DNA of 64,000 nucleotides from IMG/VR virus record IMGVR_UViG_3300035680_000003; one strand, written 5' to 3'. The first letter of the stretch is position 1, and every line of letters begins with the position of its first letter. Of this stretch, positions 3,001 to 35,737 are shown one piece after another. This DNA is from a virus. Lineage: Duplodnaviria; Heunggongvirae; Uroviricota; Caudoviricetes. The notes beneath the pieces are model-generated. The model saw only the letters and a list, made by a program, of their open reading frames with translations, ran no database searches and was not told where the DNA came from. A program made the position numbers and the translations under genes.

Positions 3001-4472
3001 GAACTCAACTTACATTCAATATTGACAATAAGCCTAGACCATCAGGTACATATTCTATTGAAACAGTGCATGTTTACTTAAATGGCTTCTTACTAAGATC
3101 GGGCTTTGATTATACGCTATCCGTAAGTAACAGTACAATTACTTTCCCTACCGGATTACTTGTAAACGGTGATGCAATTGCAATCGAAAGCCTTATTGAT
3201 TATGATTATATAGTGTCTGGTAACACGGTTATTTTATCAACTCCTCTTACATCCGGATCTGTAAAAGTAACTACGTTTACAGACCATGATGGCATGTTGA
3301 TTAGAACAGAACGTTTCTCAGGTAATTCTATGCGTAGATTTACTCTTAGCTTACCTGTTATTAGTGCAGAGTATGTCTGGGTCTATGTAGACGGAGCACC
3401 GTTAATACCTGGATATGACTTTGGACTTCTTCCAGATCAACGAACTATTCAACTTAGTGAATGGATATTTGTCAATACGTCAAACGACATTATGATTACC
3501 TCTATTAATTCACCATTAAGAAATAACGTTACTTTAGGTTATAGAATTTTTAAAGATATTTTTGATAGAACATCATATACTCGATTATCAGATTTTTACA
3601 GTACACGTTTAACTAAAGAGTTAACGCTCACTGATACTGAAATTCACGTTGAAGATTCTAGCAGATTGATTCCTCCTAATCCTATTAGAAATATTCCAGG
3701 AGTAGTATTTGTTGACAGCGAACGTATTGAGTTCTTTGAAAAAGCCAGTAATACATTAAGCAATTTACGAAGAAGCACTCACGGCACAGCACCCGCATTG
3801 TTTTCTGAAGTTGGAACTAAACTAATGGATCAAAGTACACAACAACAAGTTCCCTACAGTGATGTAATTAAGAAGCAATATCATATTACTACCAGCACAA
3901 CAAATGCTCGAGTATTAAGTACTGTAACTAACTCGTTCAACACATACACATTTGTTATTAGCACTTCCAGTTATTCCACTGACGTGGGCCCATACCAGTT
4001 TGTGTGTGACGGAATTACTCTTTCTACATCGACTGATGCAACTAATCAGGTAACTATTAAGTACGGTGGAAGGACACTTCGCAAAACAAGTACCTTGGTA
4101 CATGATTCTAGAAGAGCCTATGATACGACTTCAACAAGTTTAGTAACACTGGATTCTGAATTTACTGTAGTTTATAATTCGTTGACTAACAATCATGAAT
4201 TAAAATTAAATATTGAGGGATTTGTTTCCGGAGTGAGATTAGAAATTGAACAAAGAACTGGTCAGTTCTGGCAACCGATTGAAGAAGTATCTGCTAATGA
4301 GTGGGTAATTAAATCTTCGTTATTGACTGCTGTAACACCGCAGGCTATGTTTATACAACAGAAAACAACAGAATTACCTGATTATTATTATTATGGTGGA
4401 GATCCTACTCTAACAGACAATAATAATTTTGAATTGACAGACGACAATAACAATCCGATAGAGGGATATTAA
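3..4472 (+). CDS. Giant virion structural protein (baseplate-wedge-like), 5'-truncated by window edge; internal NIDO-like segment
   Basis: The frame is open from base 3 (YVTPPLVTITGGGQYV...). >1470 aa, Thr/Ser/Val beta-rich, with VYxNG/VYVDG repeats typical of baseplate proteins. Heads a co-directional tail gene block. Confidence 0.7.
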   Translation, partial: YVTPPLVTITGGGQYVTSTATVSVVMGNDTIRKNTVGIKFDRVGTGYELGDTTVTETFVCSGDANKFVLSWLAEPNKSNITPLVDGKLVLATDYTIEYYTETYNNYTKKYSRFVFLNYVPGEGQIFKITYNKNINLYTAVDRIHNYYEPTDSMPGLELPLLMSGAEFGETQLQGLRFDYSPPWGHGAYDNNSAWSDLTDYYASAKLVADALYNTGTLVLSTTEGISPGQKIILTNTALNYLRTDTVVVSVNTGANSIEVSNYEFQIKRVWSDSLTTRGTLVFYTVEDFGGDIRVGDYAEIWGINGGEGGTLTGFDGRYQVTGVGTDRFTAIGTGTHWSSVLSTSTVRSAPAGTTVRIPSMLRDYEVTSTYKIYSFADDIINTTTVYYDTLISIQDVSTSSVYLDYSTLPLQTSSLAEYVETTATSSGTLALTIRGLGLSGHHIDVDIYGYPKLEFWKDNFNVNGVDTELTAGSWDSAGNFVGALGVNPTDLTVNGSGFLNAQLGYAPEEHVKGQTFDSVSINVYTQENNSSPLVISGAVPVVSGRVSVTTLPHPVTESVGVQVEYKGLIFDRLDTPPNPGTIGPYFSSSLATPIGVSGAPIGASAGDDTFTGPYSLGFNWNMFGTVYTEVYVGTNGYVTFGGGDTEYTPLNIDALENPSIMVMFCDLWQAIGIFGQPLENGQLPGLWFDTGTISGTTTQFNYWRLRFQGSHYQKRDEPGVLPAYQYELGLYSDGVNQYVEMIYENTWREYDPLNASSSVPNGGFITGISNQNGANAVQVPYTSIQNNTSHVFYSTSEGGNWQYAGQGSFDPNKEPYNFTARNQFFIYDRTLYIAPQTTTGRAGYTLMTMGGDYLLDSNLVSVSDQSSVLIPSLASIDDVRSVYVTVNGTQIFETLSTSSYGYMVSPTGIENNRAAVTVYNIPAGTNVIQAWFFETNYPEFNGVWTEYFNITTTTTVLNLTKPIANIEPISAQVLVEYEALAGAGRRRLSPPDVTYYKFDGTQLTFNIDNKPRPSGTYSIETVHVYLNGFLLRSGFDYTLSVSNSTITFPTGLLVNGDAIAIESLIDYDYIVSGNTVILSTPLTSGSVKVTTFTDHDGMLIRTERFSGNSMRRFTLSLPVISAEYVWVYVDGAPLIPGYDFGLLPDQRTIQLSEWIFVNTSNDIMITSINSPLRNNVTLGYRIFKDIFDRTSYTRLSDFYSTRLTKELTLTDTEIHVEDSSRLIPPNPIRNIPGVVFVDSERIEFFEKASNTLSNLRRSTHGTAPALFSEVGTKLMDQSTQQQVPYSDVIKKQYHITTSTTNARVLSTVTNSFNTYTFVISTSSYSTDVGPYQFVCDGITLSTSTDATNQVTIKYGGRTLRKTSTLVHDSRRAYDTTSTSLVTLDSEFTVVYNSLTNNHELKLNIEGFVSGVRLEIEQRTGQFWQPIEEVSANEWVIKSSLLTAVTPQAMFIQQKTTELPDYYYYGGDPTLTDNNNFELTDDNNNPIEGY

Positions 4473-31238: not shown

Positions 31239-31507
31239 TAGTCTTCACGACGATTAGCGTGACCTGCAATATCGACAATAGTTTCAAGATCGTCGAATTC
31301 ACGGAACACTTGATCCCATTGATCTTTCTGTGCAATTTTGATTGCTTTGCGAATAACACTAGGTTTTACCTCTAGTTCTTCTGCCACTGCTTTGATAGTT
31401 TCATTCAAACCTTCAGTGAGGTCTTGAATTTCCTGCATAACAGTCATACCTTCGGATACGATCTGTTTGATTTTTGCCTGTTCTGGTGCGCCAAATGCTT
31501 TTCCCAT
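31238..31507 (-). CDS. Small dsDNA-binding protein (T4 DsbA/GapR-like)
   Basis: Helical 89 aa protein with a IKAVAEELEVKPSVIRKAIK pattern; has its own sigma70 promoter. Confidence 0.6.
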   Translation of the reverse strand: MGKAFGAPEQAKIKQIVSEGMTVMQEIQDLTEGLNETIKAVAEELEVKPSVIRKAIKIAQKDQWDQVFREFDDLETIVDIAGHANRRED

Positions 31508-31527
31508 AATATCTCCTGTGAGTATAT

Positions 31528-31556
31528 AGTATACAGGGTTGTGATTACAAGGTCAA
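31528..31556 (-). promoter_or_regulatory. Sigma70-type promoter
   Basis: Minus strand TTGACC-17 bp-TATACT with an extended TG. Confidence 0.7.
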
Positions 31557-32174
31557 ACTTTTTTCTGTGTATTCTGCCCTAGTCCAACCAAGAAGAAAGT
31601 TTGCTTTCCAATCATTTTGTGCAAAGCCAGTAAGGTTTTTCCATTGATCTCTGTGTGCTAGAACCTGTCGAGATGCATCACGCCAGTCAGTGTGTCGTAC
31701 CTTAAAATCAAACATCTGCATAGATTTTAGGAATGTGTCGTAGTCGTAGTTGTCATACTCGACGTGCAGTACTTCATAGATATTACCAGCGTCATCTACT
31801 GCATCTAATGCAAAATCAAATCCCCATTTCTGTGGAGTTTTCAATAACCACTCTGCCTCGGGAATATCCTTTTTTATTTTTCTTAGTTGATGTTCTGCGT
31901 AGTCCTCGTATCTGCAACGATGCAGGATCAATGAGTGATCTAGTATTAGACCTATATCGTTATATTCTAGAGCAAACCAAGGTTCTTGCCAGCAGCGATG
32001 ATTAAGTATAGGATGGTCTATAGGATGGTGCATCATCCCGTAATATTTCTGTTCTGCTTGATTTAATTCAAATCCGTCTTTGTCATAGAATTTAAAATCT
32101 TCTGCAACAACATTGTAGATGGGCTCACTACAGACAGGATTTGATACTACCGGTACATCAAATCTTTTAAACAT
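31545..32174 (-). CDS. Hypothetical protein
   Basis: 209 aa aromatic-rich globular ORF. Confidence 0.7.
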   Translation of the reverse strand: MFKRFDVPVVSNPVCSEPIYNVVAEDFKFYDKDGFELNQAEQKYYGMMHHPIDHPILNHRCWQEPWFALEYNDIGLILDHSLILHRCRYEDYAEHQLRKIKKDIPEAEWLLKTPQKWGFDFALDAVDDAGNIYEVLHVEYDNYDYDTFLKSMQMFDFKVRHTDWRDASRQVLAHRDQWKNLTGFAQNDWKANFLLGWTRAEYTEKSLTL

Positions 32175-32177
32175 GTT

Positions 32178-32387
32178 TTATTTTTTTGTGGGCTGCTTTG
32201 CATCGTAGTAGGCTGCTATAGCCATACGATCTTTCTTTTCTGGATCTTTGTTTTTAAATTGACGATATTGATTTGGGTCAGCAGTTTGAAAACGTTGTTT
32301 CCAATAGTCAATAGGCATATCGGGCCTTAGTTTAGGCTGTGGTCCGACTGGCTTAGTTTGTTGAGCAGGCTCCTCTGTCGGTGCCAC
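32178..32387 (-). CDS. Small ORF, probably the -1 frameshift extension of the 897 aa protein
   Basis: The frame is open upstream to 32423 and passes through the A_AAA_AAG site at the end of the upstream gene. An independent GTG start is possible. Confidence 0.6.
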   Translation of the reverse strand: MAPTEEPAQQTKPVGPQPKLRPDMPIDYWKQRFQTADPNQYRQFKNKDPEKKDRMAIAAYYDAKQPTKK

Positions 32388-32412
32388 CGGTTCCTGCTCA
32401 ATTACTTTTTTG
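32361..32412 (-). promoter_or_regulatory. Candidate programmed -1 ribosomal frameshift signal
   Basis: Minus strand TC-A AAA AAG-TAA, followed by a 9-bp inverted repeat TTGAGCAGG...CCTGCTCAA (32361-32369 / 32393-32401). Confidence 0.6.
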
Positions 32413-35095
32413 ATTTCTTCTTTTCAGGAAGACCTTTGTGCTTAGTTGATGCAAAGTCTTTGGCATCTTTCTTGCCCATATCCTTGGCTACTTTGGCAAC
32501 TTCTTTACTGGCAGGCTTTTCACCTTTTTGTGCAGCATGAACCATGCCCATAAACTTTTGTTGCTGCTTGCTTACTGCTTTTTCACTCAGGACCTGTTGC
32601 AATGAGTGGGCAAGACTTTCCATATATACATCAACTTCGGATACTGACTGTTCCATACTTCTCAACTCACCAAGTGTGTCGGAAACAAAGTCTTCATCAT
32701 AGCTGATCAAATATCTTGCCTCCTTTGGCGACATGTTTAATTCTTTGACCAGCACCATGCCTATTGCGTTGATCAATTCATTTTCTTGTGCAGGATCGTA
32801 TTTGATTCCACGATCTGATAGAATTTTAGCAACTTGATAACTTGTGCGATCTTCCGGTGCTTCCGCTACACCTTGCTCACTCTCGCCTATTTCAAGTTCG
32901 CCGCGACTAGCCATTCGGTTTTGTAATTTATCCAGATTACCCGACTGCAACTGACTATCAAATTGTGGTAGCATTTGAGCAAGGGTATCAGGATCCATTT
33001 CAATATCAAATTGATTTGATAGTATCTGTTGCCAATTTAGTATTCTTCTTTTTTCTGGTGTTCCTATAGGAGCCATGACTACTGCTTTTAGATATGCCAT
33101 TGCTAAATGTGTTTTGTTTGCTCCAGAGCCTTCCGCCACACCTTGCTCAGGACTATGTCTCAGATTGGCTATGTAACCATTGGGACCAGTCCATTGATCT
33201 TTATAGTCTTGCCATTCGTTCTGACTCCATGCTATAGGGAACATTTGCCAGGCCCACATTCCATGGGTATTAAACTCGCTAGAAAATTCCTGTATGTCTG
33301 CCAGTGTAATACCCGAGGTCTTGGTCTGTTTAGCAACATCAATCAACCAGTGCGCCATGGTTTCGCCACCGTCTTCGAATTCGCTTAATTTTTTTAATTT
33401 ATTAAATCTATCTGCACCTTGCTTGGCAAACTCACGGCAAAGATCTTCAAGCCATTTTATAAATTCCTGACCAAATTTGGCCAATGCAGTCTCGGGGTCG
33501 CTGCCTGTTCTTGCAGTGAGGGACTTATTCAAATTATCTACACCTTGCCTGGCACCAGCACCGCCTGTGATCTGTCCCATCATGCTGTCAAATCTCTCAT
33601 CGCCTGTTGCCTCCGCCACACCTTGCTTTTTATTTCGCAACAGGCCCACCTGTTTTAGTTTTGGGTCCATGAAGTAATAAACATTCCCGTCAGCACCCAC
33701 AGCATGACTTTTACTTGCAGTGTATCCAGTTCTTAATTCATCAGGAGTTGCAGGTCTTACTTGTTTCACTGATTCACGCAAATCGCCTTCTTCAGGGTCT
33801 TGGCCAGTTTTTACAAAATGTTCAAGTTCTTCAAGTGAATAACCAACTTGATCGGCTAGGTTTTGTTTGTCTTCTGGCGACATTCTGCGCCATCCACTTC
33901 TTATTGTTTGTAGTTGTAGGGACAACTCGTGGCGTCTGGTCATTTCGTTACCAGCATTAGTTACTGGACCGTTTAAAATGTTTCTGATTTCTGAAGTATA
34001 GTATGCGTCTGCTTTACCTGCCATTTGACTACCGTACTGTTGACCTAATGTTTTCCCACCAAACTTTTTGACTTGTTGTGCGCTTAATACTTTGGCAAGA
34101 TGCGTAAAATCTTTTCCGTTTCTTATTGCGGCTACTAGTTTTTCTTCGGCCGCTTCAATCCATTCTTGGAATTCAGGATCTGCTTGAACGGCCAAGTTGT
34201 CTACTTCTTGATTATAGAAGTCAATTGATTGTTGGTGCCCATCTGTACCTGCGGCATTAGCTGGCATGTTTACACTTGAGCTACCAAATGCCTCCGCCAC
34301 ACCTTGCTTTGGCAAATCACTTAATTGATCCGGAATATAGTCTTCATCGTAACTTAATAAGTAACGAATTTGTTTTGAACTCATTCCTGCTTTCTTCATG
34401 TATTGAGCCATCAATCCGATGAGTTCATCTTCTTTATCTGGGCTGTAGGTAATGCCGTCTTGAGCCATTTGCTGTCCAATGGACAACTTAGTTTGATCCG
34501 CTGGGATACTCAAATACTGGTCGCCTGGCATACTGGCTCCACCTTCCTCTACACCTTGCTGCTCTGCTTTTGCTTTGGCCTCATCTCTAGTACGACTATA
34601 ACCTTGGGCTATTGCTAGTTGTACTTGATTAGGGTAGACAGACGTTTTGAACATTTTACCATCTTTAACAACATACCAGTCTGTTGGATCTAAGTCGTGT
34701 CGTTCATCATCGCCGCGATTGAATGCACCACCTACTCCACGAAATGGCATGCCTGCTTCTGCTAACTTTGATTTTAGTTGATCAATTTTTGTGCGTAGAG
34801 ATTCCATATAGGGCTTTTTATGTTTTGCAGCGCCCTGCTTTTGTTCTTTTTTCTTATCCTTGTGTGCGCCTGCACCACTGGACTTGGCATTCTTAGCAAC
34901 AAAATTACGGGGAGTAGTTGCAGGAACTTTGTCTTTACCTGCTTCTTGTGCCAAGATATTTCCGCGCTTTTGGACTTTGCCTAACGAGCTCGGTGCTGTA
35001 GCAACACTACCTGAACCGGTTGCACCTGCTGTCATTGACTCTAATGTATAGCGAGTTTCGTTATTGCTTTTTGATTTTTTAAATTCGTTGTTCAT
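32402..35095 (-). CDS. Modular predicted internal head polyprotein with repeated QGVAE junctions; C-terminal DUF3008-like module
   Basis: Unrelated modules are joined by xQGV(A/E)E; many further L/V/M-x-E sites; basic C-terminal KAVSKQQQKFMG...KHKGLP module. Confidence 0.7.
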   Translation of the reverse strand: MNNEFKKSKSNNETRYTLESMTAGATGSGSVATAPSSLGKVQKRGNILAQEAGKDKVPATTPRNFVAKNAKSSGAGAHKDKKKEQKQGAAKHKKPYMESLRTKIDQLKSKLAEAGMPFRGVGGAFNRGDDERHDLDPTDWYVVKDGKMFKTSVYPNQVQLAIAQGYSRTRDEAKAKAEQQGVEEGGASMPGDQYLSIPADQTKLSIGQQMAQDGITYSPDKEDELIGLMAQYMKKAGMSSKQIRYLLSYDEDYIPDQLSDLPKQGVAEAFGSSSVNMPANAAGTDGHQQSIDFYNQEVDNLAVQADPEFQEWIEAAEEKLVAAIRNGKDFTHLAKVLSAQQVKKFGGKTLGQQYGSQMAGKADAYYTSEIRNILNGPVTNAGNEMTRRHELSLQLQTIRSGWRRMSPEDKQNLADQVGYSLEELEHFVKTGQDPEEGDLRESVKQVRPATPDELRTGYTASKSHAVGADGNVYYFMDPKLKQVGLLRNKKQGVAEATGDERFDSMMGQITGGAGARQGVDNLNKSLTARTGSDPETALAKFGQEFIKWLEDLCREFAKQGADRFNKLKKLSEFEDGGETMAHWLIDVAKQTKTSGITLADIQEFSSEFNTHGMWAWQMFPIAWSQNEWQDYKDQWTGPNGYIANLRHSPEQGVAEGSGANKTHLAMAYLKAVVMAPIGTPEKRRILNWQQILSNQFDIEMDPDTLAQMLPQFDSQLQSGNLDKLQNRMASRGELEIGESEQGVAEAPEDRTSYQVAKILSDRGIKYDPAQENELINAIGMVLVKELNMSPKEARYLISYDEDFVSDTLGELRSMEQSVSEVDVYMESLAHSLQQVLSEKAVSKQQQKFMGMVHAAQKGEKPASKEVAKVAKDMGKKDAKDFASTKHKGLPEKKKSKK

Positions 35096-35457
35096 TTCTT
35101 CATCCAGTTTGCTACAGGGCTTACGGTATATGTATTGTCCAGTTCGCGACTTTCCATATCACCTTTATTTACATCTTTATAGTTTGCACCAACTACCTTG
35201 TATGCTTGTTTAAGCATTTCTTGTTCTTCTTTACTGTAAGGATGAGTAGTTTTAGTTTTACCCGCCCAACTCTTACCATTCATTTCGATGGGGTCTTTTC
35301 CGTTGGCTCCTGCTACTGCCATGCCTAATCTATAGGATGTATAAGTGCTGTCGGCTCTTTCACCGTCCTTGTAGGTATTTAAACCACGAGTAGCCTGTTG
35401 CTGTCTCTTGGTAATTTTACCTGTTTTCATCTCAGTGATTAGTTCATTGATGCGCAT
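35092..35457 (-). CDS. Small predicted internal head protein
   Basis: The likely start ATG 35457 gives MRINELITE, resembling the T4 capsid-targeting sequence; TAAATA lies just upstream. Confidence 0.65.
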   Translation of the reverse strand: MRINELITEMKTGKITKRQQQATRGLNTYKDGERADSTYTSYRLGMAVAGANGKDPIEMNGKSWAGKTKTTHPYSKEEQEMLKQAYKVVGANYKDVNKGDMESRELDNTYTVSPVANWMKK

Positions 35458-35461
35458 AATG

Positions 35462-35737
35462 TTATTTATTTCTTCCGTACCATAGTTCAAACCATGCGGG
35501 AGAACCAGATTTAATTCCATGCTCTTTCATGTATTTAGCCTTATCTACAGCACCAGATTTAACGTAATTGGATTCTCTTACGGATGCATTGTATTCGTGC
35601 AGTCGTTCTGTAGCATTTAGCCCGCCCATATAGCTAACAGTCTTTAAGGCGTGTATAGGATCTTCCGGTGCAAGATAGCAATCGTCCGGACTGTCCTTTA
35701 CCATGTTTTCGTGAGTGATGTAATACTGCTTGATCAT
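35462..35737 (-). CDS. Hypothetical protein
   Basis: 91 aa ORF coupled to the 1606 aa gene by an ATGA overlap. Confidence 0.65.
   Translation of the reverse strand: MIKQYYITHENMVKDSPDDCYLAPEDPIHALKTVSYMGGLNATERLHEYNASVRESNYVKSGAVDKAKYMKEHGIKSGSPAWFELWYGRNK

Follow-up and report, generated by a model that had tools for sequence, protein, structure and literature searches.

Probable programmed -1 ribosomal frameshifting at the 3' end of a modular gene in a family of environmental jumbo phages

A candidate recoding site where the modular gene ends

The 64,000-nucleotide stretch of tailed-phage DNA analyzed here (IMG/VR record IMGVR_UViG_3300035680_000003; hereafter, the window) encodes on its minus strand a large modular protein, P0001, and the 3' end of the respective 897-codon gene is very likely the site of a programmed -1 ribosomal frameshift that would append a small additional module to a fraction of the protein molecules. 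Such a frameshift, with stimulation by a hairpin, an extra module and two isoforms, had been proposed in an earlier note on this DNA, and this proposal is strongly supported by the comparison of related loci, in which the heptamer, the stop codon, the hairpin and the coding capacity of the -1 frame are all conserved. The elements of the site in the window are the following.

32402..35095, minus strand: zero-frame open reading frame (ORF) of P0001, 897 aa, with the C-terminus ...KSKK-stop
32411-32405, minus strand: slippery heptamer A_AAA_AAG in zero-frame phase, with AAA as the P-site codon and AAG as the A-site codon
32404-32402, minus strand: zero-frame stop codon TAA directly 3' of the heptamer, where non-shifting ribosomes would terminate
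32361..32401, minus strand: putative stimulatory hairpin with the arms TTGAGCAGG (32401-32393) and CCTGCTCAA (32369-32361) and a loop of 23 nt
32313..32405, minus strand: linker in the -1 frame, VIEQEP...GPQPKLRPDM, with many Pro, Glu, Ala and Gln residues, predicted to be disordered and overlapping the hairpin
32196..32312, minus strand: core of the appended module, a predicted helix-loop-helix, ...DYW..RFQ.A.P..Y.QFKNK.PEKK..MA.AA.Y.A
32178..32180, minus strand: -1 frame stop codon, giving a predicted trans-frame product of 972 aa (897 + 75)

The minus strand at the junction reads ...GAA AAG AAG AAA TCA AAA AAG TAA TTGAGCAGG(23 nt)CCTGCTCAA. This confirms three elements of the earlier note, namely that the heptamer directly precedes the stop codon and is in phase, that a perfect 9-bp stem follows (32401-32393 / 32369-32361, the first pair being 3 nt 3' of the heptamer), and that the -1 frame runs into a 69-aa ORF. 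The -1 frame reads KK-VIEQEPVAPTEEPAQQ... and stays open for 75 codons past the two lysines, ending at 32178, so that the GTG-initiated ORF of 69 aa (32178..32387) is contained within the extension; the tryptic linker peptide VIEQEPVAPTEEPAQQTK is encoded upstream of GTG 32387. The predicted minimum free energy (MFE) of the hairpin is -20.4 kcal/mol (z = -3.6), and none of 200 dinucleotide shuffles folds as well. The generic features of -1 frameshift sites are thus present: a heptamer in the X_XXY_YYZ phase, a downstream structure and a coding -1 ORF that, across the family, mostly has no start signal of its own. Seven in-frame A_AAA_AAA/G heptamers were found in window ORFs of at least 100 codons, and only the one at this junction adjoins a stop codon and is followed by a long open stretch in the -1 frame, of 75 codons compared with at most 21 for the others. 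Matches to the frameshift families of Rfam, including the DnaX frameshift element, were not detected in a cmscan search of positions 31900-32900 at E <= 10, the scores being at chance level and far below the gathering thresholds.

Two other features of this region deserve mention. Another heptamer, A_AAA_AAA, is located in frame inside the 897-codon ORF (33388-33394, minus strand), where the -1 frame is closed after 16 codons, and is probably meaningless. After the TAA, the zero frame is open for 23-30 codons that overlap the linker (32331-32401, minus strand, in the window, and similarly in the group of loci typified by L003), with a GTG right after the stop codon in most relatives; no sign of coding was seen in this short frame. 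This GTG was considered as a potential site of termination-reinitiation, which was rejected given that the codon is in the zero frame and not in that of the module. A role of the stem as a transcription terminator was rejected as well because no U-run follows it.

Distribution of the frameshift and in-frame architectures

Two scans of IMG/VR identified 86 loci with the appended module, which were classified by a script. The frameshift class includes 52 loci in 48 contigs from 42 metagenomes, with 31-34 unique junction sequences. In these loci, a long zero-frame ORF ends with A_AAA_AAG TAA or A_AAA_AAA TAA and the module is encoded in the -1 frame, in an ORF whose 5' boundary is only 10-58 nt upstream of the heptamer's last base. 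One of the two heptamers is retained in all 31 unique junction contexts, and the stop codon adjoins it in 29 of these, being displaced by a single codon in the remaining two (L006 and L111).

The in-frame class consists of 28 loci in which the module immediately follows a D-x-Y-M-E-S-L linker in the same frame as the long ORF; neither a slippery site nor the Pro/Glu-rich linker is present. These fusions indicate that the module belongs to the same protein, in agreement with the suggestion of the earlier note that the 69-aa ORF is another module of the large protein. The note had also posed conservation of the heptamer and stem in homologs against in-frame fusion: both signals turned out to be conserved across the unique junctions, and the relatives with a fused module possess neither the linker nor the slippery site. 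In one of the in-frame loci (L004), the protein shares with P0001 the N-terminus and a middle cassette with 84% identity, and yet the module is in frame.

The cassette that precedes the frameshift signal varies. It can be a DUF3008 domain (the window and L091), a segment ending with ...AAWKAKNK[AS]KK (L002, L084, L102 and others) or a bare linker helix ending with ...VEELAKK (the L003 group), which implies that the signal travels with the module rather than with the upstream domain. The heptamer, stop codon, hairpin, linker and module thus appear to behave as a single terminal cassette that occurs behind various upstream modules in related jumbo phages. A 20-nt motif derived from the signal matches 74 sites in IMG/VR, 47 of them in this family and the others in unrelated contexts with short upstream ORFs. 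The Pro/Glu-rich linker was not found fused in frame at any of the 33 linker-type junctions nor in longer database proteins, the latter being weak evidence. Given that insertion of one A would suffice to fuse the frames, the lack of fused linker-type junctions suggests that both isoforms are maintained.

In five loci (L085, L086, L089, L111 and L114), the module is followed by additional cassettes in the -1 ORF, reaching approximately 290 aa in L086 (positions 3001-3870), where the continuation past the module includes ...ENFADGKNPQDKGD...SVSSLRKTA...HWLANMKAGRAKK. Large stretches of protein in these relatives seem to be reachable only by the shift, which would make it essential there. In the window, gene callers report P0001 (897 aa) and, separately, an orphan ORF of 69 aa, when the actual products of the locus are probably the 897-aa protein and an extended form of 972 aa. 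Together with the shift-only stretches of the relatives, this implies that the annotation of a widespread environmental jumbo phage family is systematically wrong at this site.

Constraint on the heptamer and the hairpin

The codon that precedes the A run ends with A in all 34 unique junctions (GCA, TCA, AAA, ACA, CTA or GAA). Because this third base is invariant although the encoded residue is variously Ala, Ser, Thr, Leu, Glu or Lys, selection acts on the complete heptamer. The codons of the 5' arm of the stem are GAG CAG in 28 of 28 unique sequences, when GAG accounts for just 16% of Glu codons and CAG for just 24% of Gln codons in the upstream ORFs of the same loci, which points to selection on the RNA. 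Because ungapped MAFFT alignment of the junctions fails to bring the 3' arms into register, base pairs were tallied from the individual MFE folds. The AGCAGG/CCTGCT core is paired in all 25 unique sequences of the stem type, starting 5-6 nt after the heptamer; the 3' arm CCTGCT occurs at four distances that depend on the length of the linker, with spans of 34, 46, 52 or 64 nt. The predicted hairpins of the relatives have energies between -18 and -27 kcal/mol, with z between -1.7 and -5.3. Outside the core, pairing at position 7 is kept as A-T (L085), G-C (11 sequences) or G-U (L113), and position 8 is C-G, or G-C in L134; the stem of L086 comprises 11 perfect pairs. Across the family, the loop length ranges from 17 to about 45 nt, mismatches occur in some of the stems, and in some variants the A run is longer and the hairpin is absent.

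The -1 frame as a protein-coding sequence

The linker is conserved as a protein sequence (V-S-E-Q-E-P ... P-A-Q ... G-P-Q-P-K-L-K-P). Pairwise differences counted by codon position of the -1 frame are concentrated in the third position both in the linker (3080/2641/5013) and in the module core (3850/3287/7898), and invariant residues of the core vary synonymously: the Asp codon is GAC in 18 sequences and GAT in 10, Phe is divided equally between TTT and TTC (14 each), and Ala is encoded by GCT, GCA or GCC. Potential starts for independent translation of this frame are scarce. An in-frame ATG, GTG or TTG is present in the linker proper at only two of the 33 unique junctions, the window (GTG) and L111 (TTG), and none of these codons precedes the module core at seven of the 33. 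A Shine-Dalgarno sequence accompanies the ATG immediately preceding the core in only two cases, and in the L119-L134 clade this ATG is replaced by a Val codon.

The AlphaFold model of the extension, built with 32 homologues, shows a disordered linker (predicted local distance difference test, pLDDT, of about 45-67) and a lysine-rich core that forms a two-helix hairpin (residues 34-43 and 57-72, pLDDT 83-91). The extension has no family in Pfam or PHROGs. A fold search of BFVD with the model of the module yielded only weak matches (E of 0.07 or worse), which show no function and correspond to short helical segments of uncharacterized phage proteins, including those of Atu_ph07 and P-TIM68; the occurrence of such segments within larger proteins fits a cassette. 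A search of the ESM Atlas returned only unnamed viral clusters below 0.9 and, likewise, no function.

Proposed mechanism and variant junctions

The ribosome would reach the heptamer with tRNA-Lys on AAA in the P site and on AAG in the A site, at the point where the hairpin, a few nucleotides downstream, is expected to resist unwinding at the mRNA entrance. In some of the ribosomes, both tRNA-Lys molecules would then slip back together by one base and pair anew with AAA AAA, after which translation would resume at GUA (Val), whereas those that do not slip would terminate at once on the adjoining UAA. The two products would have the same N-terminus, one consisting of 897 aa (...KSKK) and the other, of 972 aa, additionally containing the disordered linker and the small basic helix-loop-helix module. 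A_AAA_AAG is the most shift-prone heptamer in Escherichia coli, and stimulatory structures normally start 5-8 nt downstream of the slippery site (PMC5009743, PMC4066793). The purpose of the shift might be to keep the dose of the last module at a sub-stoichiometric level in a cargo protein that is probably packaged into the virion and processed by a protease. The occurrence, efficiency and purpose of shifting are what we infer from directly observed features, that is, the signals and their conservation, the protein-level constraint on the -1 frame and the in-frame fusions.

Two subgroups of junctions deviate from this scheme. In the A9G subgroup (L006, L114, L116, L117 and L151; positions 5220-5260 in L006), the linker is short, KKVSERQLEP.MDLD.W, and the GAGCAGG/CCTGCTC hairpin is missing, which suggests that a longer slippery run might replace the stimulator. 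In the A10G subgroup (positions 4300-4400 of L007, as well as L139, L140, L141, L142, L144, L145 and L147), a recoding-like site conserved in eight contigs is found inside the module. Here, the module shares the frame of the upstream ORF but is interrupted by GAA AAA AAA AAG TAA between ...PEKK and MATAALY..., such that ...QFKNK.PEKKK is split from its -1 frame continuation VMATAALYKARQPK; no significant hairpin follows. The A10G site could be one of frameshifting, of transcriptional slippage or of homopolymer error.

A tentative and rather doubtful extension of these observations is that a mobile 3'-terminal cassette has moved between the cargo polyproteins of T4-like jumbo phages, dosing the last packaged module sub-stoichiometrically by at least three routes (a junction with A6G and a hairpin, one with A9G and no hairpin, and an A10G run within the module) and repeatedly switching to in-frame fusion. 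Should this be the case, recoding would represent tunable dosage control for virion cargo.

Evidence against frameshifting and alternative explanations

Several observations weigh against the programmed frameshift. The trans-frame protein and the fixed isoform ratio suggested in the earlier note are both predictions. The window encodes no tRNA, and the host may or may not have a single tRNA-Lys. The evidence of covariation in the stem is good but not perfect: the 6-bp core is invariant, so that classical covariation is confined to two outer positions; position 7 is an A/C mismatch in the most common, L003-like subgroup; and codons within the stem also specify conserved residues (E-Q ... P-A). 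The window has no Shine-Dalgarno-like stimulator at a distance of about 10 nt on the 5' side of the heptamer, and none is conserved in the family, with a motif of this kind found at 11 of 34 unique junctions, in one subgroup about 6 nt from the heptamer. Furthermore, one A inserted by RNA polymerase would give exactly the same protein, and in the window an AGGA sequence is located 4 nt before GTG 32387, where public gene calls start the small ORF.

Transcriptional slippage, whereby RNA polymerase would add one A within the run and normal translation of the resulting subset of mRNAs would produce the same fusion, appears improbable for the window. Bacterial transcriptional slippage is documented on runs of nine As or Ts (PMC5009743), and the relatives with far longer runs, namely the A9G subgroup and the A10G subgroup with the run inside the module, have no significant hairpin downstream, so for these two subgroups slippage is a serious alternative. 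The window and most of the relatives, however, have only A6, the run is always in the exact X_XXY_YYZ phase, and the conserved hairpin 5-6 nt downstream of the run is positioned to influence a ribosome, not to operate behind a polymerase.

Very improbable, in our estimate, is a separate gene for the 69-aa ORF, with GTG 32387 or ATG 32306 (encoding the M of ...DMPIDYW) as the start codon, in which case the overlap with the heptamer would be incidental. In addition to the AGGA upstream of the GTG, a TAAGG sequence precedes ATG 32306 in the window. However, the GTG is unique to the window lineage and the AGGA itself lies within a hairpin arm; the linker upstream of the candidate starts is conserved as a -1 frame protein; and the seven junctions without any start before the core, the clade with Val in place of the Met and the 28 in-frame fusions all speak against independent initiation.

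Finally, a homopolymer error in sequencing or assembly, or a recent frameshift mutation that left a pseudogene tail, would be conceivable given that homopolymer runs are error-prone and that A10 runs of the L007 type could include such errors, but these explanations appear effectively refuted by the comparison: the same break recurs in 48 contigs from 42 metagenomes with 33-34 different junction sequences, an identical A6 sequence was assembled independently from two metagenomes (L081 and L082), and the downstream frame is under purifying selection.

Comparison with known frameshift systems

The site can be regarded, in our reading of the sequences, as a new example of the -1 frameshift class exemplified by dnaX and IS911, located on what appears to be a swappable terminal module. 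The E. coli dnaX gene (tau/gamma) and IS911 and other members of the IS3 family have the same A_AAA_AAG heptamer, a hairpin a few nucleotides downstream and two products with a common N-terminus (PMC5009743, PMC4066793). The differences are that the predicted shift adds 75 aa to the product, whereas in dnaX it brings the ribosome to an early stop, and that, compared to both dnaX and IS911, the zero-frame stop codon directly adjoins the heptamer, there is no conserved upstream Shine-Dalgarno-like stimulator and no match to an Rfam family, and the gene families are unrelated.

The biological logic of the system seems closest to that of the frameshift-appended C-terminal extensions of phage structural proteins (PMC5009743), such as gene 10B of T3 and T7 and the proteins of Lactobacillus phage A2 and Listeria phages A118 and PSA, which similarly involve a small C-terminal module on a phage protein. 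Among such modules, the Ig-like domains are mobile, being encoded in frame in some phages and reached by frameshifting in others (PMC5009743). The module described here is a basic helix-loop-helix, modelled as a two-helix hairpin, and not an Ig-like fold; the carrier protein consists of multiple cassettes and is neither a capsid nor a tail protein; and the recoding signal is complex and conserved along with the module in many variants, unlike a chance out-of-frame landing. The tail assembly chaperone G/GT of phage lambda also depends on a conserved -1 shift close to the gene's 3' end to yield a short and a long form. In lambda, however, the slippery site is G_GGA_AAG and no stimulatory hairpin is needed, and the present gene is located beside the DNA polymerase gene and genes without known function rather than between the tail tube and tape measure genes.

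The internal proteins of T4 and Alt, capsid-targeted cargo that is processed by the prohead protease, resemble this system in the repeated V-A-E motifs of P0001 and in the presence of Peptidase_S77 in related contigs; the packaging, cleavage and capsid targeting of P0001 are putative. The T4 internal proteins are not known to employ frameshifting. If P0001 is indeed packaged cargo, this would be the first case known to us in which frameshifting doses a module of an internal or cargo protein of a phage, as opposed to a tail chaperone or to the decoration of a capsid. No publication on this frameshift site was found in literature searches. The family provides a natural test series, with dozens of variants of A_AAA_AAG plus a hairpin, for the relationship between the geometry of the stimulator and the efficiency of frameshifting.

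The modular protein, its possible packaging and its genomic context

P0001 consists of an N-terminal region that is conserved in the family, four QGVAE linkers, repeated Y-M-E-S-L motifs and a C-terminal DUF3008-like module. All Pfam matches of this protein are below the threshold, namely those to DUF7230, close to the N-terminus, and to DUF3008, over residues 840-893, and the PHROGs matches fall on the DUF3008 part. An identical 897-aa protein is present in public databases as a hypothetical protein, and parts of P0001 are shared, in a mosaic pattern, by more than 380 database proteins. Among 50,697 phage records, which were searched for cultured relatives, there was no match to window positions 31500-35600 (megablast) or to the 77-aa extension (tblastn), and with P0001 itself tblastn matched only the DUF3008 modules of T4-like cyanophages.

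The earlier note described P0001 as an internal head protein or head polyprotein, a putative label, the hints at it being indirect. The V-A-E motif within each of the four QGVAE linkers conforms to the (L/I/V)-x-E rule of the T4-type prohead protease. A protease of this type (Peptidase_S77, 89-96 bits) is encoded in two of the five related long contig fragments that were searched (L162, G005:C1:36795-37229; L163, G003:C1:147577-148005), which is consistent with head maturation of the T4-like kind in this group of phages. In Synechococcus phage S-SCSM1, a DUF3008 protein of 69 aa that stands alone (L160, 91626-91835) is annotated as a virion protein and adjoins another annotated virion protein of 520 aa; this annotation is the only one that ties a P0001 cassette to virions.

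The window has a GC content of 40%, and its family B DNA polymerase is most similar to those of jumbo phages, with 50% identity to Sinorhizobium phage Phosso, 46% to Agrobacterium phage Atu_ph07 and approximately 43% to the GAP32/CBB group. The neighborhood of the modular gene includes genes for a 142-aa protein without an assigned function, a 1606-aa multi-domain protein, another such protein of 209 aa, a SAM decarboxylase-like protein and DNA polymerase B. An ORF of 122-142 aa is located just upstream of the modular gene in most relatives (35092-35520, minus strand, in the window; L004, L008, L115, L122, L127, L136, L139, L153 and L157). In the window, it overlaps the modular gene by ATGA; the synteny is kept, and the product has no Pfam or PHROGs match.

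Downstream of the modular gene, the gene order differs. In the in-frame class (L004, L008, L122, L124, L133, L136, L149 and others), the gene that follows the stop codon of the module begins by an ATGA overlap and encodes a conserved protein with the pattern M.L.EF...DY.IH.R..LD..L..LC..., whereas in the window and in L002, the downstream neighbor instead encodes a protein that starts with MFKRFDVP... (31545-32174 in the window). The two architectures therefore have different downstream neighbors.

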